The notes beneath the pieces are model-generated. The model saw nothing but the letters and a program-made list of their open reading frames with translations. It was not told the origin of the DNA and did not search any database. DNA of 14,748 nt from Verrucomicrobiota bacterium (GTDB lineage Bacteria; Verrucomicrobiota; Verrucomicrobiia; Opitutales; Coraliomargaritaceae), in assembly GCA_039815375.1 (NCBI GenBank), contig JBCBZJ010000045.1, positions 1-14,748 on the forward strand. The letters run 5' to 3'. This document shows positions 8,222 through 14,748 of this stretch, piece after piece; the stretch's first letter is position 1; each line of letters starts with the position of its first letter. Position numbers and translations under genes: made by a program.

Positions 8222-8323
8222 TTACAGGGTCGACCTGACCTTCCCGCTCTTCTTCAGGATGCACGCTTCGTGGGAGTTATCGCCGGAGTCGATTCCAACA
8301 GTGTCCGTGTTTGTTTTTGTCAT
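8222..8323 (-). pseudogene. IS110-family transposase N-terminal stub (33 aa)
   Basis: MTKTNTDTVGIDSGDNSHEACILKKSGKVRSTL* resembles the RuvC-like DEDD N-terminus of IS110 transposases (T-I/V-G-I-D-L-G-D...H..C-V/I-L...G). Not in the ORF track. Confidence 0.8.
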
Positions 8324-8391
8324 AAGGCATCTAGCTTAAGAGCCGTTCGCCTCAGGGGCGAGACTCACTGCTACGCCTTCACATTCCTACT
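8222..8391 (-). mobile_element. Left end of an IS1111-type (IS110 family) insertion sequence, truncated, inserted in an attC site
   Basis: Minus strand: attC arm TATGAACC, core AG, then TAGGA-ATGTGAAGGC (sub-terminal IR 8375-8384), leading to a transposase stub. The IR is the perfect inverted complement of GCCTTCACAT in the right end at 14493-14502. Confidence 0.8.
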
Positions 8392-8406
8392 GGTTCATAT
8401 ATTTCT

Positions 8407-9060
8407 TTAAAAGAATTCTCGAGGTTCCTGCTGAGTGGAACCGTTGGTCAAGCGAATTTCACTATCTATATAACCACTATTAACACCAGTGTATGTGATT
8501 GTGGCTTCTTCGGCTTCGGGTGCGGGCTGACCAAAAGTGCTAGCAAAAGACAGTGGTGAGCCGTTAAATCCAAAGTCGGGTATTATGTAGCGTGTGATGT
8601 TCGCTACTAAAGTGACGGTATTAAAATCAGAATTAGAAACGGTCCATGACCAAGTTCCTTCCGTGATAATTTCTATTCCCTCAGATGATCCACGAAGTGA
8701 GAAACTGCCGTTGGTCAAATAGGTGCCAGGTTCGATTAGAAAGCCATCTCCAAAGATTTGATCAGCTAGACTTTTATTGATTTCGACGTCTGAGAAAACG
8801 TCTTCGATCACTAAACGGTAAAAGGTCGTCGTCTCATTCCTTTCACGTGTGATTTCTTTGGTTCCGTCGTCACCTCTGTGTTTCGAACCGACTTTTCGCC
8901 ATTCACTTAAATCGTAAGATTCATATAGCTGATAAGACTTTTGTTCGTTTGATGTGTACCTTAACTCGATACCATTAACCGTGCTTTCGATTAATAACGA
9001 GCAGTATAGGGGATGCAAAATTGCCAGCAGCAGTATCGAAGAGAGTGTGCGTTGTTTCAT
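8407..9060 (-). CDS. Cassette: hypothetical secreted protein (217 aa)
   Basis: Start reassigned to MKQRTLSSILLLAIL, because the upstream ORF extension runs through the attC. N-terminal beta module 'YQLYESYDLSEW...TFYRLVIE'. Confidence 0.8.
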   Translation of the reverse strand: MKQRTLSSILLLAILHPLYCSLLIESTVNGIELRYTSNEQKSYQLYESYDLSEWRKVGSKHRGDDGTKEITRERNETTTFYRLVIEDVFSDVEINKSLADQIFGDGFLIEPGTYLTNGSFSLRGSSEGIEIITEGTWSWTVSNSDFNTVTLVANITRYIIPDFGFNGSPLSFASTFGQPAPEAEEATITYTGVNSGYIDSEIRLTNGSTQQEPREFF

Positions 9061-9067
9061 TTTCTTT

Positions 9068-9124
9068 TGTGAATGTGGAGATGGAGCGACGGCGCTAGCC
9101 GTTGCTCCGATCAATTGGTTCTGA
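9068..9124 (-). repeat. attC site (R' core altered to ATT)
   Basis: Minus strand: TCAGAAC caatt GAT(C)GGAGCAACGGC tagc GCCGTCGCTCCATC tccac ATTCACA. Confidence 0.85.
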
Positions 9125-9676
9125 TTAGTTTTCTTCGATGTTGATATTGTAGTCTTTTAGCCGAAATACCTCGGTGAAGATTCCATGGACAAAATCGGAC
9201 TGTTTTTTGCTTTTTATTTCGAAAGAACCTTCAATTGAAGTGAAAAAGTTTACAGTTTCCCCATTCGATGCAGTTCCTTTTTCTTCATTCAATTTGAATA
9301 CTACGTTCCATTCTTTCAGATAATCCTGAAGCCTCTCTTCTTCTTCAGCGCTGATGAATCTGGATAGAGTGTACCCATCGGTATTCGAGATTTCGTTTAC
9401 TTCATTGGTTTCAATTATTCCGACAAAAGCGTTTTCTGTCAGATCGTATCTCGAAATTGGGAAATCGACGAAAATGCTTTGGTCCGTGTATGTAGCAAAT
9501 TGAACATAGTTCTGAGTTGGAAGTGCCTCGATGATGACGAAGGAATCATCATTAGTTCTTTTTTTTAGCTCTGAAAGTGCCTGAGCTATCGGATCACTAC
9601 TTACGCCTTCGTTATCGGTGCAACCAAGAAATTGGATGCTTAGTGAAGCTAAAAGTAGCTGGATGAGTTTTCTCAT
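9125..9676 (-). CDS. Cassette: hypothetical lipoprotein
   Basis: MRKLIQLLLASLSIQFLG|C lipobox-like signal. Stop directly abuts the attC. Confidence 0.8.
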   Translation of the reverse strand: MRKLIQLLLASLSIQFLGCTDNEGVSSDPIAQALSELKKRTNDDSFVIIEALPTQNYVQFATYTDQSIFVDFPISRYDLTENAFVGIIETNEVNEISNTDGYTLSRFISAEEEERLQDYLKEWNVVFKLNEEKGTASNGETVNFFTSIEGSFEIKSKKQSDFVHGIFTEVFRLKDYNINIEEN

Positions 9677-9683
9677 TACTTGC

Positions 9684-9890
9684 TCACCCCTCTAGTCTGG
9701 TTGTTCCTTTTTCCCAAATCCGGATTCGAGGAACCGAGTTAGTGCACCAGTTCGCGGAGATGTGTAGGTTCCCTTCTTTATGTTCTATTTGAGCTTCGCC
9801 CATCGCATTAAGTAAGAAGCTTATGTAGGCAACGATTGCCGCTAGAAAAACGAACACTGCGATAAATCCATATTTTAGGGCGGGTTTCAT
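9684..9890 (-). CDS. Cassette: short membrane-anchored hypothetical protein (68 aa), possibly truncated
   Basis: Start MKPALKYGFIAVFVFLAAIVAYISFLL follows GTTATGCAAAGAAA. Only an attC-like left stub (GAACAAC-cagac, ~9695-9706) precedes the next gene. Confidence 0.55.
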   Translation of the reverse strand: MKPALKYGFIAVFVFLAAIVAYISFLLNAMGEAQIEHKEGNLHISANWCTNSVPRIRIWEKGTTRLEG

Positions 9891-9897
9891 TTTCTTT

Positions 9898-9955
9898 GCA
9901 TAACGATGAGATGTGGCGACGGTATTAGCCGTTGTCCCGCTCTGACTGGATATGC
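9898..9955 (-). repeat. attC site
   Basis: Minus strand: GCATATC cagtc AGAGCGGGACAACGG ctaata CCGTCGCCACATCT catc GTTATGC. Confidence 0.85.
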
Positions 9956-10287
9956 CTATTCTCGGGGAATCCACCAATGTAACCAAAGAACCAGAGGAGA
10001 TTAAGCCTACTCTCCATGGATAGCTGTGCTTGAACTTCCATTTTTATCCAAAATGGGGTGGGTGAATAAGCATTGGAGTAATAACCGAAGGTTTCTCTAT
10101 TTGTTTTATCAAATAGCTCATCTGCGTCTACGTATCTTTCCGGGTCGTTCAATTTATGGAAAGCGGTTACTTCTTTTAGTCGGTTATCTACAAGTGAATT
10201 ACACTGAGATATTCCGACTGTGGCTGTTGCCGCCCAAAGAAACAGATATGCGGAAATGATCGTCGGAACTATTTTCTTTTTTCTCAT
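9925..10287 (-). CDS. Cassette: hypothetical exported/membrane protein (120 aa)
   Basis: Start MRKKKIVPTIISAYLFLWAATATVG. Stop lies in the attC loop. Confidence 0.75.
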   Translation of the reverse strand: MRKKKIVPTIISAYLFLWAATATVGISQCNSLVDNRLKEVTAFHKLNDPERYVDADELFDKTNRETFGYYSNAYSPTPFWIKMEVQAQLSMESRLNLLWFFGYIGGFPENRHIQSERDNG

Positions 10288-10330
10288 CGTACCCCGAGCT
10301 GGCGGCATTCAGTGTAGCGCTTGGTTATGC
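10282..10330 (-). repeat. Shortened/degenerate attC site
   Basis: Minus strand: GCATAAC caagc gctacactgaatgccgccagctcggggtac GATGAGA. The R' position overlaps the next ATG. Confidence 0.6.
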
Positions 10331-10779
10331 ATTAATCGCTCCATCACAATGTTGGCTCGTGAGTATACCGGATGCCTACCTTCAAAAATTGTATGAAATC
10401 CATACTTCTTGTAGAGAGAAATCGCAGCCTTAAGTTTAGTATTAGAGACAAGGTAAACTCTTTTCGCTCCGAGGGCTTCCAATTTTCTAATTGCAGCCCT
10501 CATCAATATATGGGCATAGCCATTCCCTTGATGAATCGGCGAGACTGCCATTCGCGCTAACTCATAAACTCCTGACTCCTCAAAGAACAGAGCGCACACA
10601 CCTAAAACTTCCCCATCCTCTTCTAGCGAGAAAATATAACCACCATCATCTATTACCATTTGCGGATTTCGCGCCAACTCGCGGTCGACTTCCTCCAACT
10701 GAAAGTAACGAGAAATCCACTCTTCGTTGAGACGGACAAAATCTTGAAATACTTCAGGATGATTTTCGATCACTTCCAT
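10309..10779 (-). CDS. Cassette: GNAT-family N-acetyltransferase
   Basis: YELARMAVSPIHQGNGYA acetyl-CoA motif; 'LVSNTKLKAAISLYKKYGF'. Confidence 0.9.
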   Translation of the reverse strand: MEVIENHPEVFQDFVRLNEEWISRYFQLEEVDRELARNPQMVIDDGGYIFSLEEDGEVLGVCALFFEESGVYELARMAVSPIHQGNGYAHILMRAAIRKLEALGAKRVYLVSNTKLKAAISLYKKYGFHTIFEGRHPVYSRANIVMERLMHNQALH

Positions 10780-11458
10780 TCTCGTATAACGTGCCCGCGC
10801 TGTGACAAGCGCTTTGTTCTGCCAATTTGATTTCTAGTTTCCGATCCGAATTCTCGCGGACATCGATGTCTTCAAGATCTCTTATTCGAAAGAGAATCCT
10901 TGGGTCTGAGATGCCGCAACTTGCTCCAACTAGAACAACCGAGCAACCTGCTGAAAGTGCTGACCGCATTCCCATGTCCGAGTCCTCGAATGCTAGGCAA
11001 TCCTTCGCTAAACAACCTAAAGTTTTCGATGCTTTTAGATATGCTTCGGGGTCCGGTTTTCCTTCGTTTAATTGATCCGCTCCGATCAACACATCCGGAA
11101 TAGGCAAACCCGCCGCTTCCATTTTCCTTTTTGCAGTCTCGGTTTCGCTCGAGGTGGCTACTGCCCATGGCTTGTCCTTTATTTTCTTTATAACGCGAAA
11201 TGCCCCAGGGATCTCCTTAAGATTGATGAGTGATTCTCTTTCCATTCTTTCGATTCTCTGTGCTTCGTATGACGAATCTAGATGCGGTGCTACTTCTCTT
11301 ACTGTGTCGACCGTCCTGGAGCTGTATGACGAGCTAACAGCTTCGAAGTTAATCTCATGCTCAGCACACCATTCCTTCATGACGCGATCAACGATTGATG
11401 CGGTGTCCACTAGAGTCCCGTCTAGATCGAAAATAAATGCGTCAAATGATTTTTTCAT
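10754..11458 (-). CDS. Cassette: HAD-IA family phosphatase (sugar-phosphatase-like)
   Basis: FDLDGTLVD, ATSS, GKPDPEAY and FEDS motifs. C-terminus reads through a shortened attC. Confidence 0.9.
   Translation of the reverse strand: MKKSFDAFIFDLDGTLVDTASIVDRVMKEWCAEHEINFEAVSSSYSSRTVDTVREVAPHLDSSYEAQRIERMERESLINLKEIPGAFRVIKKIKDKPWAVATSSETETAKRKMEAAGLPIPDVLIGADQLNEGKPDPEAYLKASKTLGCLAKDCLAFEDSDMGMRSALSAGCSVVLVGASCGISDPRILFRIRDLEDIDVRENSDRKLEIKLAEQSACHSAGTLYENGSDRKSS
10784..10822 (-). repeat. Internally deleted attC (39 bp)
   Basis: Minus strand: GCAGAAC aaagcgcttgtcacagcgcgggcac GTTATAC. R'' is the exact complement of GTTCTGC at the start of this cassette. Confidence 0.7.
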
Positions 11459-11464
11459 TTCTTT

Positions 11465-11549
11465 GCAGAACGTGCCCAGAGCTGGGTCACAAGTGATTGT
11501 CGAATTTTGAAGTTACGTAACTGGGATTGTCTATGCCGACTGGTTCAGG
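11465..11549 (-). repeat. attC site with incomplete right arm
   Basis: Minus strand: CCTGAAC cagtc ggcatagacaatCCCAG...CTGGGcac GTTCTGC. Confidence 0.7.
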
Positions 11550-11642
11550 ATTCAATCGTGCTGGTGGTTTAGCTCTGAGCAAGCCTCTGATGCTGACTTT
11601 TCCAGCAGAGCTGGGACCGCTTATCTCCGCTAACATACGCTT

Positions 11643-11732
11643 ATGTTCTCTTCGTTTAGTTTTCTGTTTTCGCCGTAGTGGATTAGCGTCAATTAGCGTT
11701 CATTAGCGGTTAAAAAAACGTCGGATTGCTCT

Positions 11733-11735
<3 letters not shown>
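11643..11735 (-). repeat. 93-bp non-coding cassette leader, copy 1 (contains 3 x 10-bp tandem units)
   Basis: 90/93 identical to 12514-12606. ATTAGCGTCA-ATTAGCGTTC-ATTAGCGGTT at 11682-11711. Confidence 0.95.
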
Positions 11736-12283
<548 letters not shown>

Positions 12284-12290
12284 TTCTTTC

Positions 12291-12351
12291 GAAGAACGCT
12301 ATGCACAGACGGCGAGCGCTTGCGCTCGTTGTCTACTGCGCTTCGTTGTGC
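12291..12351 (-). repeat. attC site
   Basis: Minus strand: GCACAAC gaagc GCA(G)TAGACAACGAGCGC aa GCGCTCGCCGTCTGTGC atagc GTTCTTC. Confidence 0.9.
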
Positions 12352-12352
12352 T

Positions 12353-12514
12353 TTATTTGGTTAGTTGGTAAATGGTTGCTTTCAGGACCTGCCATGAAAT
12401 TTTGGCGGTGTGAATATCGGGACTAAATCCAGAAGCTACCTGTTGAAATGGGTGAATGTAGTTTCGAAAGTCTCTCAGTGGGTGGCTGAACTTCTTAACG
12501 TCCTCTTTGAGCAA
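12353..12514 (-). pseudogene. 3' remnant of a HEPN-like (RxxxH) protein gene
   Basis: LLKEDVKKFSHPLRDFRNYIHPFQQVASGFSPDIHTAKISWQVLKATIYQLTK* ends 1 nt before the attC. The 5' part is replaced by the 93-bp leader. Not in the ORF track. Confidence 0.65.
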
Positions 12515-12606
12515 TGTTCTCTTCGTTTAGTTTTCTGTTTTCGCCGTAGTGGATTAATGTCAATTAGCGTTCATTAGCGGTTAAAAATACGTCGGATTGC
12601 TCTTCT
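12514..12606 (-). repeat. 93-bp non-coding cassette leader, copy 2
   Basis: 90/93 identical to 11643-11735. Confidence 0.95.
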
Positions 12607-12617
12607 TCAATTGCTCT

Positions 12618-12673
12618 CCTGAACGTCAAAGTGAGGCGCGGCTTTAGCCGTTACTAGCCACAACTTGTTAGCT
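12618..12673 (-). repeat. attC site
   Basis: Minus strand: AGCTAAC aagtt GTGgctagtaaCGGCT aa AGCCGcgcctCAC tttgac GTTCAGG. The stop codon lies within R''. Confidence 0.8.
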
Positions 12674-13078
12674 TTTATCTTGCGCGTAATAGAGTTTCAT
12701 TGTTCTCTGATCTGTCTCAATCGTTCCTAAGAAGTGCTTATTATTTAGCTTGTTGAAATTGGAAGCAGGACCAAACGCGATAGAATTCCTCCACTCCACG
12801 CACGGTTCACCACTCTCCCAGAAGATGCCCTTTTCTGAGATTACCAATTTGCTCAAGGAAGCGTTTCTCGGAATCGTGTAGTGCCCAAAATCAGATTCAA
12901 TTATAATTGGCTCAAATCTTTCGCCTCTAAGTTTGATGACAATGCTGGAGTCTTGAATACTTAACAACTCTACATTCCCATTCTCGTATTTGATTTCCTG
13001 TGTACGGGCAAAATATACAAAGCATACTACTGAAAGCAGCACAACTGCGACTGTGGTAATTAAATGTCTTTGTTTCAT
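12668..13078 (-). CDS. Cassette: hypothetical protein with N-terminal membrane anchor/signal
   Basis: MKQRHLITTVAVVLLSVVCFVYFA; flanked by attC sites. Confidence 0.8.
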   Translation of the reverse strand: MKQRHLITTVAVVLLSVVCFVYFARTQEIKYENGNVELLSIQDSSIVIKLRGERFEPIIIESDFGHYTIPRNASLSKLVISEKGIFWESGEPCVEWRNSIAFGPASNFNKLNNKHFLGTIETDQRTMKLYYAQDKS

Positions 13079-13086
13079 TTTCTTTC

Positions 13087-13155
13087 AGCGAACGTGGAGC
13101 GTAGTCGCGAAGGTGAGCGGAGCGAACCGGAGTTGACTACCGCGTCTTGATATGT
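13087..13155 (-). repeat. attC site
   Basis: Minus strand: ACATATC aagac GCG(G)TAGTC...GACTACGC tccac GTTCGCT. Confidence 0.8.
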
Positions 13156-13178
13156 GTTCCCGGAAGGATTTTGTGCAG

Positions 13179-13207
13179 AAAAAAGGAAAGCCCCGCTGAC
13201 GCGGGGC
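13179..13207 (-). terminator. Rho-independent terminator of the PEP-CTERM gene
   Basis: GCCCCGC-4 nt-GCGGGGC stem (13190-13207) followed on the minus strand by TTTCCTTTTTT. Confidence 0.8.
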
Positions 13208-13231
13208 AGTAAAGGGAAAAAGGGCCAAAGT

Positions 13232-14147
13232 TTAAAGGGTGCCGCGCCCCCGGCGACGCACCAGTGCAAGCGTAAGTCCAAGACATCCCAAGATCGCAGC
13301 GTAAGCCGACGGTTCAGGAATGGGCGCGAGGCTGGAGACGCGGAATCCGAGGTAGTCGATCTCGCTGGTCGGATTGAGATTGGGGCGGAACGAGGACCGG
13401 AGGGCGCCGACGTTGCTGTAGAACGAGCCACCCCGCAGCCCGCGGTTACTGGTGGACACAATTGTATCATTCCACTCCTGGATGTTGCCGCCCTGGTCGA
13501 AGGTGCCGTAGTAGCTGGCATAGTCGCTGTAGGCGCCCAAATCCGTCACGGTGCCCACGCTATTGTTGTAGTTGGCATCCTCCGTGGTGATGCTTTTACT
13601 CGCCGTCGGCAAACGGCTGGTAGTAAGCCGCTTTATACCACTCGTTCTCGCTCGCAATGGCCACCCCGCCATTGACCCAGGCTGTGGCATCACGCGTGAT
13701 CGTAGAATTTTCCGTGCCGCCTAGATTGTAAACACCGGTTTCCGTGCCGCCGGTCGTCAGCCAGTTGCTAAAACGCGCCGCATCCCAGAACGACACATAG
13801 TTCACCGGCTTATCGCCAAAGCCGCTTTTCACACTGTAGGTGTAGCTGCCGCTCGAGCCCGTGCGGCTGATGCCGCCGTGTATACTACTACCCATGGACG
13901 AATTGTAGAGATTGTATGTATCCGTCTTTGCCATGTCATTCAGGAAGGCCGTGTATTGGCTGTTCGTCACCTCGTAGGTGCCGATGTGGTAGCCGTAGGA
14001 GACCCCGCCGTGGTCGCCAGTCAAGTTGCTGCTGTCGTTCGGGTTGCCCGCATCGCCCACGAAGACCGTGTCGATGTTGATGGTGGCGTGAGACGCTGTA
14101 GCGGCCAGTAGGCCAGCCGCGAGGAGTGAGAAATGATGTATTTTCAT
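13232..14147 (-). pseudogene. PEP-CTERM-sorted FGE-sulfatase (SUMF1/EgtB/PvdO-like) domain protein, frameshifted near 13610
   Basis: Signal peptide, YEVTNSQY and SENEWYKAAYY in ORF 13596-14147. GTFDQGGNIQEW, RGGSF, GFRV and IPEPS + TM + RRR in ORF 13232-13693. Confidence 0.88.
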
Positions 14148-14195
14148 GAGCTTGGATTCGATTTAAGGATGAGTAAGATCGGTGATTAAACGTTT

Positions 14196-14211
14196 AGCAT
14201 AAACCTTGCCT
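14196..14211 (-). promoter_or_regulatory. Putative sigma54 (-24/-12) promoter
   Basis: Minus strand AGGCAAGGTTTATGCT has exact GG-N10-GC spacing (consensus TGGCACG-N4-TTGC), ~50 nt upstream of the ATG. Confidence 0.55.
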
Positions 14212-14229
14212 GGGGGGCGGGGGGGGGGG
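14212..14229. repeat. G6-C-G11 homopolymer tract
   Basis: Directly visible; abuts the -24 element. Confidence 0.9.
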
Positions 14230-14249
14230 AGCGAAAATTCACGATTTTT

Positions 14250-14265
14250 TCTCAATATTTTGACA
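14250..14265. promoter_or_regulatory. Putative activator-binding palindrome
   Basis: TCTCAA-tatt-TTGACA (minus strand TGTCAA-N4-TTGAGA), resembling TGT-N10-ACA enhancer sites. Confidence 0.4.
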
Positions 14266-14322
14266 CAGACGGAGACGCTTGGAGGGCGTGCGAAGGCTTT
14301 GTTTTCGGCCTTTCTTTGGCAT

Positions 14323-14399
14323 ATCGCGCCCGAGGGAGACTCGCTTGGGCGAAGCCCAGCTCGGGGCGCGATGGGCGAACGCGAAGCGTTCGTCCATCG
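14323..14399. repeat. GC-rich hairpin cluster with GCGAAGC loops (REP-like)
   Basis: ATCGCGCCCGAG...CTCGGGGCGCGAT encloses TGGGC-GAA-GCCCA. It is followed by CGATGGGCGAACGC-GAA-GCGTTCGTCCATCG. Confidence 0.7.
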
Positions 14400-14487
14400 A
14401 TAAGAGTAGTCGATGCGAGCCTAACGGTTCAATCGTTCAAGTGGTTCTCGGGAAACCCGGCGGCTGGACTCGCATTGACTGCCTCGC
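14392..14487 (-). repeat. attC site body whose R'' has been displaced by the IS insertion
   Basis: Minus strand, after the IS end: gc GAG(G)CAGTCAATGCGAG...CTCGCATCGACTACTC ttatc GATGGAC. Paired arms at 14469-14485 and 14404-14419, an extra base and a 5-nt spacer. Confidence 0.65.
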
Positions 14488-14748
14488 CTTCCATGTGAAG
14501 GCATCTCAAGTTTAATGTGAAAATTTCAATTTTGTAGCTGATATTGTCTTCCTGAAGCCTGGCCGAGACTGGAATCCTTTCTGTCTGGCTTCCATGCGCA
14601 CTCTTGGATCGGGCTTACCTTGCCAGTGCTGGTGGGAGTCCTGTCTCGGAGCTGCTTACTGGTTCTCGTATTCTTTTTTTGGTGTGGTTTTACCGTGATA
14701 CTGTCGAGATAACGCAGTCATCCGGACTGGACATAAGGAAAAAGTCTG
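14488..14748 (-). mobile_element. Right non-coding end of an IS1111-type (IS110 family) element; transposase expected beyond the window
   Basis: Minus strand ends TTGAGAT-GCCTTCACAT-GGA-AG. The sub-terminal IR is complementary to the left-end IR at 8375-8384 and lies 3 nt from the core, with an outward -35 (TTGAGA). No ORF in the track over 14516-14748. Confidence 0.75.
14555..14730 (-). ncRNA. Putative bridge/seek RNA (boundaries approximate)
   Basis: Contains AGAACCAGTA (target match). The stem AAGCC..CCAAGA / TCTCGG..GGCTT encloses CATGGAAG and ATTCC (donor matches). Confidence 0.6.

Follow-up and report, generated by a model that had tools for sequence, protein, structure and literature searches.

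The minus-strand segment at the right border of the window (the whole stretch of 14,748 nucleotides that was analysed, identical with contig C58) is very probably the right end, encoding a bridge/seek RNA directed against attC sites, of an IS1111-group insertion sequence from Opitutia (Verrucomicrobiota). Comparison of related sequences established the predicted RNA fold, its four guides, the AG core shared by target and donor, the 7-bp and 3-bp ends and the attC target. An initial annotation, made from the letters alone, had drawn the same main inference of an IS1111-group right end encoding a bridge/seek RNA against the attC sites of its lineage, and this is supported by the IS110 transposase located upstream in homologs and by the covariation between guides and insertion flanks described below. 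All nine motifs that it had placed on the minus strand were found at their coordinates.

The motif GAACCAGT occurs four times in the window against 0.36 expected, and none of 200 shuffles reached four; on the minus strand one occurrence is in the RNA segment and three are at cassette boundaries. The motif CATGGAAG was found twice (0.47 expected), a number reached by 16 of 200 shuffles and thus weak if taken alone. No Rfam model matched the window at E<=1. The single-sequence fold was no better than those of shuffles (z=-0.98), and it paired the two target guides with each other. Because these three results are uninformative or weak, the case rests on the homologs. The element and its surroundings in the window comprise the following features.

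14490..14748, minus strand: probable non-coding right end of an IS1111-group (IS110-family) element, whose transposase-ward side runs off the contig.
14493..14502, minus strand: right sub-terminal inverted repeat GCCTTCACAT, a perfect 10-bp inverse of 8375-8384.
14490-14492, minus strand: 3-bp right extension GGA, after the right inverted repeat.
14488..14489, minus strand: core dinucleotide AG, common to target and donor, found at both junctions and also in the homologous empty site of contig C30.
14394..14487, minus strand: remainder of the interrupted attC (spacer end, L'', L' at 14404-14410, R' with a GAT core).
8375..8391, minus strand: left tip of the element's second copy, with the 7-bp extension AGTAGGA and an inverted repeat, located in the attC that follows ORF 8407-9114.
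8222..8323, minus strand: start of the second copy's transposase, truncated, with a frame of 33 codons, 79% identical in DNA over 137 nt to the left end on contig C11.
11733..11794, minus strand: empty attC with the target motif, L-box 7/7.
11470..11550, minus strand: empty attC with the target motif, delimited by eye with approximate limits and missed by the scanner.

The segment 14490..14748 is 70-74% identical over ~250 nt to the non-coding regions that follow full-length IS110 transposases in relatives. The tip at 8375-8391 had initially been taken for the left end of the same element. However, the right end (14490) precedes the left end (8391) in sense order, 6 kb apart, which shows that two copies are present, and that the tip belongs to the second one. 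This second copy breaks off after ~28 transposase-like codons within its 33-codon frame. The same tip precedes a fragment on contig C11, which ends in a left end with a DEDD_Tnp_IS110 frame. This N-terminal fragment, an open frame up to the contig end with four acidic residues present, is the only IS110 domain evidence in the genome and has no physical link to the copy at 14490; Transposase_20 had no match there, in a search from which 3511 bases were withheld, and the transposase of the 14490 copy was not assembled. Two further right ends, 98% identical over 132 nt, open contigs C5 and C30, and the three right ends occupy three different attC sites.

Sub-terminal inverted repeats of IS1111 elements are usually 11-13 bp long, and the repeat found here (10 bp and perfect, as read from two different copies; 9-12 bp in complete homologs) is at the short end of this range. 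Left junctions have the form (G/T)AACC-AG-left end and right junctions the form right end-AG-(G/T)CGAG. The intact attC at C30:2881-2981, which is 89.8% identical over 88 nt to the right flank at 14394..14487, joins both flanks with a single AG. The proposed shared AG core was thus recovered at both junctions and in an empty site, and there is no target duplication beyond it. If the AG is assigned to the left end, extensions of 7 bp on the left and 3 bp on the right remain outside the 10-bp inverted repeat, which is the pattern given for IS1111 in PMC11187229.

The surroundings of the element have the features of an integron cassette array: attC sites (R''-L''-L'-R', with an extrahelical base) follow single ORFs, and integrases are encoded in the genome. 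Between the two copies the cassettes consist of single ORFs (two GNAT, one HAD, the rest without assignment), followed by attC-like sites. Genome-wide, 28 of 770 matches to the target motif folded as attC and 19 of these were located after an ORF stop, whereas three scrambled motifs gave 2 of 598, 2 of 511 and 1 of 478 attC folds, none of them after a stop. By eye, all five element junctions in this genome have attC-type flanks. The attC scanners were insensitive: one found none in the window, and two others found two each of the intact sites of the array. The initial annotation had called these sites non-canonical attC of a GAAC type; the AAC/GTT core is in fact the usual one, but the preceding base does vary, being G in 13 of 33 flanks.

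Three integron integrases scored above the TIGR02249 cut-off, all on contigs other than that of the window (C51, C10 and C24 of G000, near contig ends). Two of them are in frames of 426-467 aa, compared with the 315 positions of the model; longer frames were likewise present in four of five other genomes checked, with 427 aa in the fifth. A GAT instead of a GTT core (ATC at R'') was seen in the window at 14394-14402 and at ~10290, at C2:1482 and C2:1870 of G000, and at L056, and the guides of L022, L025 and L057 read ATCC rather than AACC. This suggests that the integrases of this lineage tolerate a variant attC core.

A few other details of the array were noted. A 93-nt direct repeat (97%) is present at 11643-11735 and 12514-12606 in a small cassette without an obvious ORF, and similar sequence was found at the ends of contigs C12 and C38 and, at very high depth, in sequencing run X1. 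A GC-rich palindromic element at 14310-14400, after the GAT-core attC ends, has copies of 72-79% similarity at C40:170549 and C62:164132. On the minus strand, 13232-14147 contains a gene with an FGE-sulfatase domain that is split into two overlapping frames, and its product carries a PEP-CTERM-like tail.

Homologs were collected by DNA and protein searches, with yields of 6/60 in relatives, 16/400 in the order, 13/100 in the family and 25/400 in the phylum; two collections searched with one single-protein query yielded 7 and 11 loci, from close relatives only. Named records among them are from Thalassobacterium and other Opitutia, which makes the same affiliation the most likely one for the host of the window. 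As had been anticipated, the homologs possess an IS110 transposase (~350 aa, PF01548 + PF02371), which is directly upstream of the RNA region and on the same strand, and whose D-E-D-D and serine positions align with those of IS621. In transposase-bearing homologs the non-coding region is ~74% identical to that of the window, and in complete ones it extends ~245-360 nt downstream of the transposase.

Some of the loci have unusual arrangements. L040 and L065 (G345:3428384-3434671) are copies in consecutive attC sites ~2.2 kb apart, and the complete genome G345 contains nine right tips from two differently programmed subclades. In L047/L104 the 3' part of the non-coding region is duplicated in tandem, and the right tip with it. 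Elements L024, L080 and L083 are internally deleted and lack the RNA's 5' portion as well as the C-terminus of the transposase; since they are at different sites and both their ends are intact, they probably moved in trans.

Sequencing run X1, which is probably the source sample and therefore not independent, yielded a 478-nt contig that covers 14488-14748 and extends 216 nt beyond it, at 46x depth compared with 12-15x of its neighbours. It has six differences, all outside the guides, and its high depth fits a collapsed multi-copy repeat. A joint of 8396 to 14488 in an X1 contig was considered as a circle junction and ruled out, as it contains target bases. No circle junction was present among the contigs of four runs, a form of data from which rare forms drop out, and a scan of 14300-14748 revealed no sigma-70-like promoter or terminator. 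A seawater RNA run contained a 151-nt contig of a relative over 14560-14705 with 12 differences; as contigs do not give strand or ends and DNA was possibly present, it was not counted as evidence of expression. In run X2 a contig matching the truncated copy (~8230) continues, by eye, into transposase-like sequence, which indicates that an intact form of that isoform exists elsewhere. A short palindrome around TGAA before the right repeat (14520-14533, minus strand) is kept with compensating changes in most Opitutia homologs and is missing in distant ones. At the other end, the leader that runs from the left repeat to the start codon (8321-8380, minus strand; also in L001, L011 and L055) folds as a long hairpin that ends just before the ATG, and could mute read-through from cassette transcription.

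Taking into account that the assembly has no complete transposase, that the other copy in the window is truncated and that internally deleted relatives exist (L024, L080, L083), the copy at 14490 might be regarded as a dead or non-autonomous remnant with a genuine RNA. We consider this unlikely, because three right ends that are 98% identical occupy three different attC sites, the C11 fragment stays open as far as its contig extends and has its four acidic residues, and the 46x contig of X1 (probably the source sample), running past the window, fits a repeat present in many copies. The predicted RNA features of the element are these.

14582..14733, minus strand: predicted bridge/long seekRNA of 152 nt (RNAalifold), closed by helix P1 (14730-14733 with 14582-14585).
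14638..14727, minus strand: predicted target-binding domain of 90 nt, with P2 (14724-27/14638-41), P3, P4 (14714-17/14652-55) and an inner stem (14698-701/14668-71).
14703..14711, minus strand: right-target guide TATCTCGAC, core G plus 8 nt, predicted to pair with the top strand into the L'' box of attC.
14659..14665, minus strand: left-target guide GAACC plus core AG, predicted to pair with the bottom strand over R''.
14657..14658, minus strand: handshake-like dinucleotide TA after the left-target guide, equal to the first two left-end bases beyond the core.
14632..14637, minus strand: right-donor guide TCCCAC on the multiloop, predicted to pair with the left end's top strand at 5/6 positions.
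14589..14595, minus strand: left-donor guide ATGGA plus core AG.
14587..14588, minus strand: possible donor-loop handshake bases CC, the second of which tracks the target flank.

The fold was derived with RNAalifold from an alignment of 23 sequences. It is a three-way multiloop closed by P1, with the target domain as one arm and a variable hairpin as the other. Pairing was possible in 97.5% of 522 cells and 13 of the 23 pairs had changed on both sides; none of 500 shuffles scored as high, and slid controls had 25-44% paired. All four guides are unpaired in this fold, and its 90-nt target-binding domain has the size of published short seekRNAs (82-96 nt). Without protein the comparative fold costs ~11 kcal/mol. 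An alternative outer helix also scored well (92.5%) but is less well supported (84.8% paired, compared with 100% and 97.8%); it may correspond to a second conformation. The AAGCC/GGCTT and CCAAGA/TCTCGG stems, by which the initial annotation had closed an internal loop, paired in 40.7% of cells compared with 40.0% in shuffles and were discarded. A covariance model of homologous right ends, a check proposed at the outset, recovered 19 of 21 held-out loci of the clade (L087 and L093 were missed) and matched none of seven other loci, including ISPa21 and IS4321.

Guides were compared with insertion flanks and element ends in 41 parsed elements; three with internal deletions and four duplicates were left out, and eight were anchored by hand on stem motifs. 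Covariation with the flanks, which the initial annotation had suggested looking for, was evident. Positions -5 to -1 of the left flank agreed with the left-target guide in 23/33, 32/35, 29/35, 34/35 and 32/35 elements. The left-donor guide agreed with the right tip in 41/41, 41/41, 40/41, 40/41 and 41/41, including the G/A/C variants, whereas the third position of the right-donor guide was mismatched in 21 of 34. The following mean matches (own element, with the value for other elements in parentheses) were obtained: 6.03 (3.64) of 8 for the right-target guide, n=36; 4.62 (2.27) of 6 for the left-target guide, n=32; 3.50 (2.01) of 5 for the right-donor guide, n=34; and 3.95 (3.37) of 4 for the left-donor guide, n=41. 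In 20,000 permutations p was 5e-5 for each of the four, with the same outcome in 25 representatives picked after the table had been seen; these p-values are overstated, since the homologs are related, eight rows were hand-anchored and the representatives were chosen post hoc. Within 15 close relatives p was 1e-4 for the right-target and 0.0015 for the left-target guide, while the left-donor guide and the handshake bases were invariant in this set, making their tests uninformative (p=1).

In the genome of the window, the right-target guide matches the flank of the C30 copy at 9/9, that of the C5 copy at 8/9 and its own at 6/9 positions (the guides of the C30 and C5 copies themselves are not in the assembly), and the two empty attC sites of the window at 7/9 and 5/9. 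The initial annotation had seen no convincing right-target guide, having looked for it on the side where IS621 has it; one exists at 14703-14711, and this top-strand guide stands 5' of the bottom-strand guide at 14659-14665, which is the order of the IS1111 group. ATGACTG (~14715-14721) was also tried as right-target guide and rejected: it forms helix P4, which has compensatory changes. Of the 9/9 match on which the left-target guide had originally been based, GAACC-AG follows the flanks, but the last two bases (TA) derive from the element and not from the target. Similarly, ATGGA-AG holds as left-donor guide, but the eighth base proposed for it, C at 14596, matches in just one of the 41 homologs. 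ATTCC (14571-14575), the other donor guide put forward, does not track the left end (p = 0.89, 0.21 and 0.78 in three sets) and was abandoned.

Guide fit was poor in L028, L046, L056, L070, L086 and L094. The flank of L040 fits the guide of a sibling in the same genome, which suggests that the RNA acts in trans. Six right ends in G431 share a 9-nt flank that is predicted by the guide of the one RNA assembled there.

For IS621, each loop has been described as having handshake bases behind its 3' guide that follow the other of the two substrates (PMC11208158). The two TA positions after the left-target guide equal the corresponding left-end bases in 35/35 and 21/35 elements, the first being T, A or G (only three states, on few lineages), whereas the base after this guide agrees with the right flank of the target itself in only 14 of 40. 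On the donor side, the second base tracks position +2 of the right target flank in 28 of 40 (p=5e-5) and the first one weakly (19/40). Pairing of the handshake base with the donor guide, RNA to RNA, is disfavoured, as it follows the DNA in all three discordant elements.

The donor guides bear on a rival reading, according to which the RNA picks only the target, the protein reads the ends through the inverted repeats, and the donor matches are dispensable or vestigial. In ISEc11 a short 82-nt RNA alone supported transposition (as given in PMC11187229), the right-donor guide has the mismatched third position noted above (21/34), and the left-donor guide is 5 nt long and mostly invariant. Yet variants of the ends (T/A/G and A/G/C) are accompanied by changes in the donor guides, which are located at conserved unpaired positions, and a cross-loop base follows the left end in all 35 elements. 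These observations make the target-only reading improbable, and we favour an RNA that guides both target and donor.

Such an RNA would work as follows, by analogy with IS621 and with ISEc11/ISKpn4. The element would leave its site as a circle in which the core connects the right tip to the left tip, and a promoter formed at the junction would transcribe the transposase and the non-coding region. An RNA of ~150 nt, perhaps trimmed to the target domain of ~90 nt, would then load the DEDD/serine recombinase. Its 5' guide would pair with the attC top strand right of the core and its 3' guide with the bottom strand over R'', while the multiloop guides would pair with the circle junction. Strand exchange would take place at the core, aided by the cross-loop handshake bases. 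An element inserted 1-3 bp past R'' and oriented along cassette transcription would part R'' from L'' and should stop that attC from recombining. On the bottom strand the core reads CT for target and donor alike, with a long 5' guide, a short 3' guide and then the handshake bases. As this is the geometry of IS621, the 'reversed' guide order is most simply interpreted as the same machine on flipped DNA; Siddiquee et al. (PMC11187229) did not decide whether the reversed order reflects another mechanism.

Half of the reconstructed sites at the R'' position (10 of 20, with AAC/ATC at the expected offset) passed a strict attC test. Other positions are used within the clade: L116 and L068 insert in the R' spacer in opposite orientation, as does L059 (5-nt flank, identical RNA), L030 inserts in the right arm of an attC, and the G431 copies are at a non-attC site. 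The target guides change rapidly. Among six elements that are 96-100% identical they vary at 9 of 15 columns, compared with 93 of 1400 outside the guides; in G303, two copies are different at 5/15 guide positions and at 31/1350 others; and elements 96-98% identical differ at 4-9 of 15 guide positions but at only 1-8 of ~270 positions in the remaining non-coding region. Guides with several new bases often match a new flank at 8-9 of 9 positions. In one group 3 of 15 pairs have identical guides, and some copies fit the guide of a sibling better than their own. One could imagine that target guides are actively rewritten, for example templated from the target flank or swapped between copies, which would let the element follow the attC diversity of its host and jump among three attC positions. 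We regard this as quite doubtful, because strong diversifying selection combined with action in trans explains the divergence without a new mechanism.

The idea that the matches are chance or by-products and that the protein recognises folded attC DNA by its shape, for which it may be said that the motifs are short, that CATGGAAG occurs twice in 16 of 200 shuffles and that attC sites are structured, is hardly credible and already largely refuted by the covariation: guides also follow non-attC flanks in distant members (none of ten elements from outside the order passes the attC test, and most match their guides), and the six right ends of G431 share the 9-nt flank that the guide predicts.

If RNA-guided attC targeting is the correct interpretation, it would have arisen at least twice, in distant transposase branches and with different positions and orientations; this suggests that attC sites have served repeatedly as a safe harbour, and that the elements act as brakes on cassette shuffling in a phylum whose integrons have been little studied. 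The attC-targeting lineage appears to be independent and to be naturally and rapidly reprogrammed. The mapping of all four guides and of the handshake bases in an IS1111-type multiloop RNA bears directly on whether IS1111 seekRNAs have a mechanism distinct from that of IS110 bridge RNAs or work as the same machine bound to flipped DNA. The many pairs of guide and target that occur naturally among near-identical elements, some of them in cultured Thalassobacterium strains, offer material on guide reprogramming in nature, and the compact recombinase branch is worth screening as a tool.

The type of system is already known: targeting of attC by IS1111 seekRNAs is established experimentally for ISKpn4 and ISPst6, whose seekRNAs co-purify with the transposases, and ISPa25 has the same guide-attC matches (PMC11187229). 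The clade described here resembles the IS1111-attC group (ISKpn4, ISPst6, ISPa21, ISPa25) in its 7/3-bp ends and inverted repeats, in an RNA region downstream of the transposase with the top-strand guide 5' of the bottom-strand guide, in RNA sizes of ~150 and 90 nt, and in a target at the R''/L'' end of attC. It differs from ISPa21 (plasmid pME-1a) in its transposase, which is 26% identical, in unrelated inverted repeats and in an RNA that the covariance model of the clade does not match. On pME-1a ISPa21 is oriented opposite to the cassettes, ~6 nt past AAC, whereas the clade inserts in the same orientation, 1-3 bp past AAC; ISKpn4, ISPst6 and ISPa25 are tabulated with the placement of ISPa21 in PMC13604230. 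Transposases of the known group are 46-89% identical to each other, and the clade falls outside this range (26% to ISPa21); its host phylum, Verrucomicrobiota, is also different. The best plasmid match of any kind to the clade transposase was 34%. Twelve representatives from the order of the host and from metagenomes grouped in a single branch (SH-aLRT 98) that lies among elements whose targets are not attC, and a tree constrained to place ISPa21 within it was rejected (AU test p=1.4e-21, from a quick LG+G4 tree of 31 of 49 proteins with one known attC-group member and long outgroup branches). The attC tropism thus appears to have arisen independently of the ISKpn4/ISPst6/ISPa21 group.

The nearest named elements found were ISCARN52 and ISAcp5 of ISfinder, which by eye have the same signature motifs along the whole transposase. 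They form a diverged branch in the data of PMC11187229, ~25% identical to ISPst6, ISKpn4 and ISPa21 in its matrix. No description of their RNA, target or activity was found in the papers searched, where ISAcp5 is only mentioned in passing. A search judged on listings and abstract openings returned nothing on the clade, its attC targeting or the hypervariability of its guides, and figures and ortholog supplements may hold members of it.

With the IS621 bridge RNA the predicted RNA has in common four guides that overlap with a 2-bp core, handshake bases that follow the other substrate and a recombinase with a DEDD plus serine active site; with a bottom-strand core of CT, its guide lengths are mirrored. 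In contrast to IS621, where the RNA is in the left end and has two simple internal loops, it is located in the right end and carries the donor guides on a three-way multiloop enclosing the target domain, and the element has long inverted repeats and targets attC instead of REP sequences. Multiloops were noted in many IS1111 RNAs by Durrant et al. (PMC11208160), whose Fig. 6d presents three RNAs of IS1111 elements. Compared with these systems, what is new is the unrelated transposase branch, the other attC position and orientation with sister programs at two further attC positions, the handshake bases that resemble those of IS621 in mirrored form, and a divergence of the guides about ten times as fast as in the remainder of the element.
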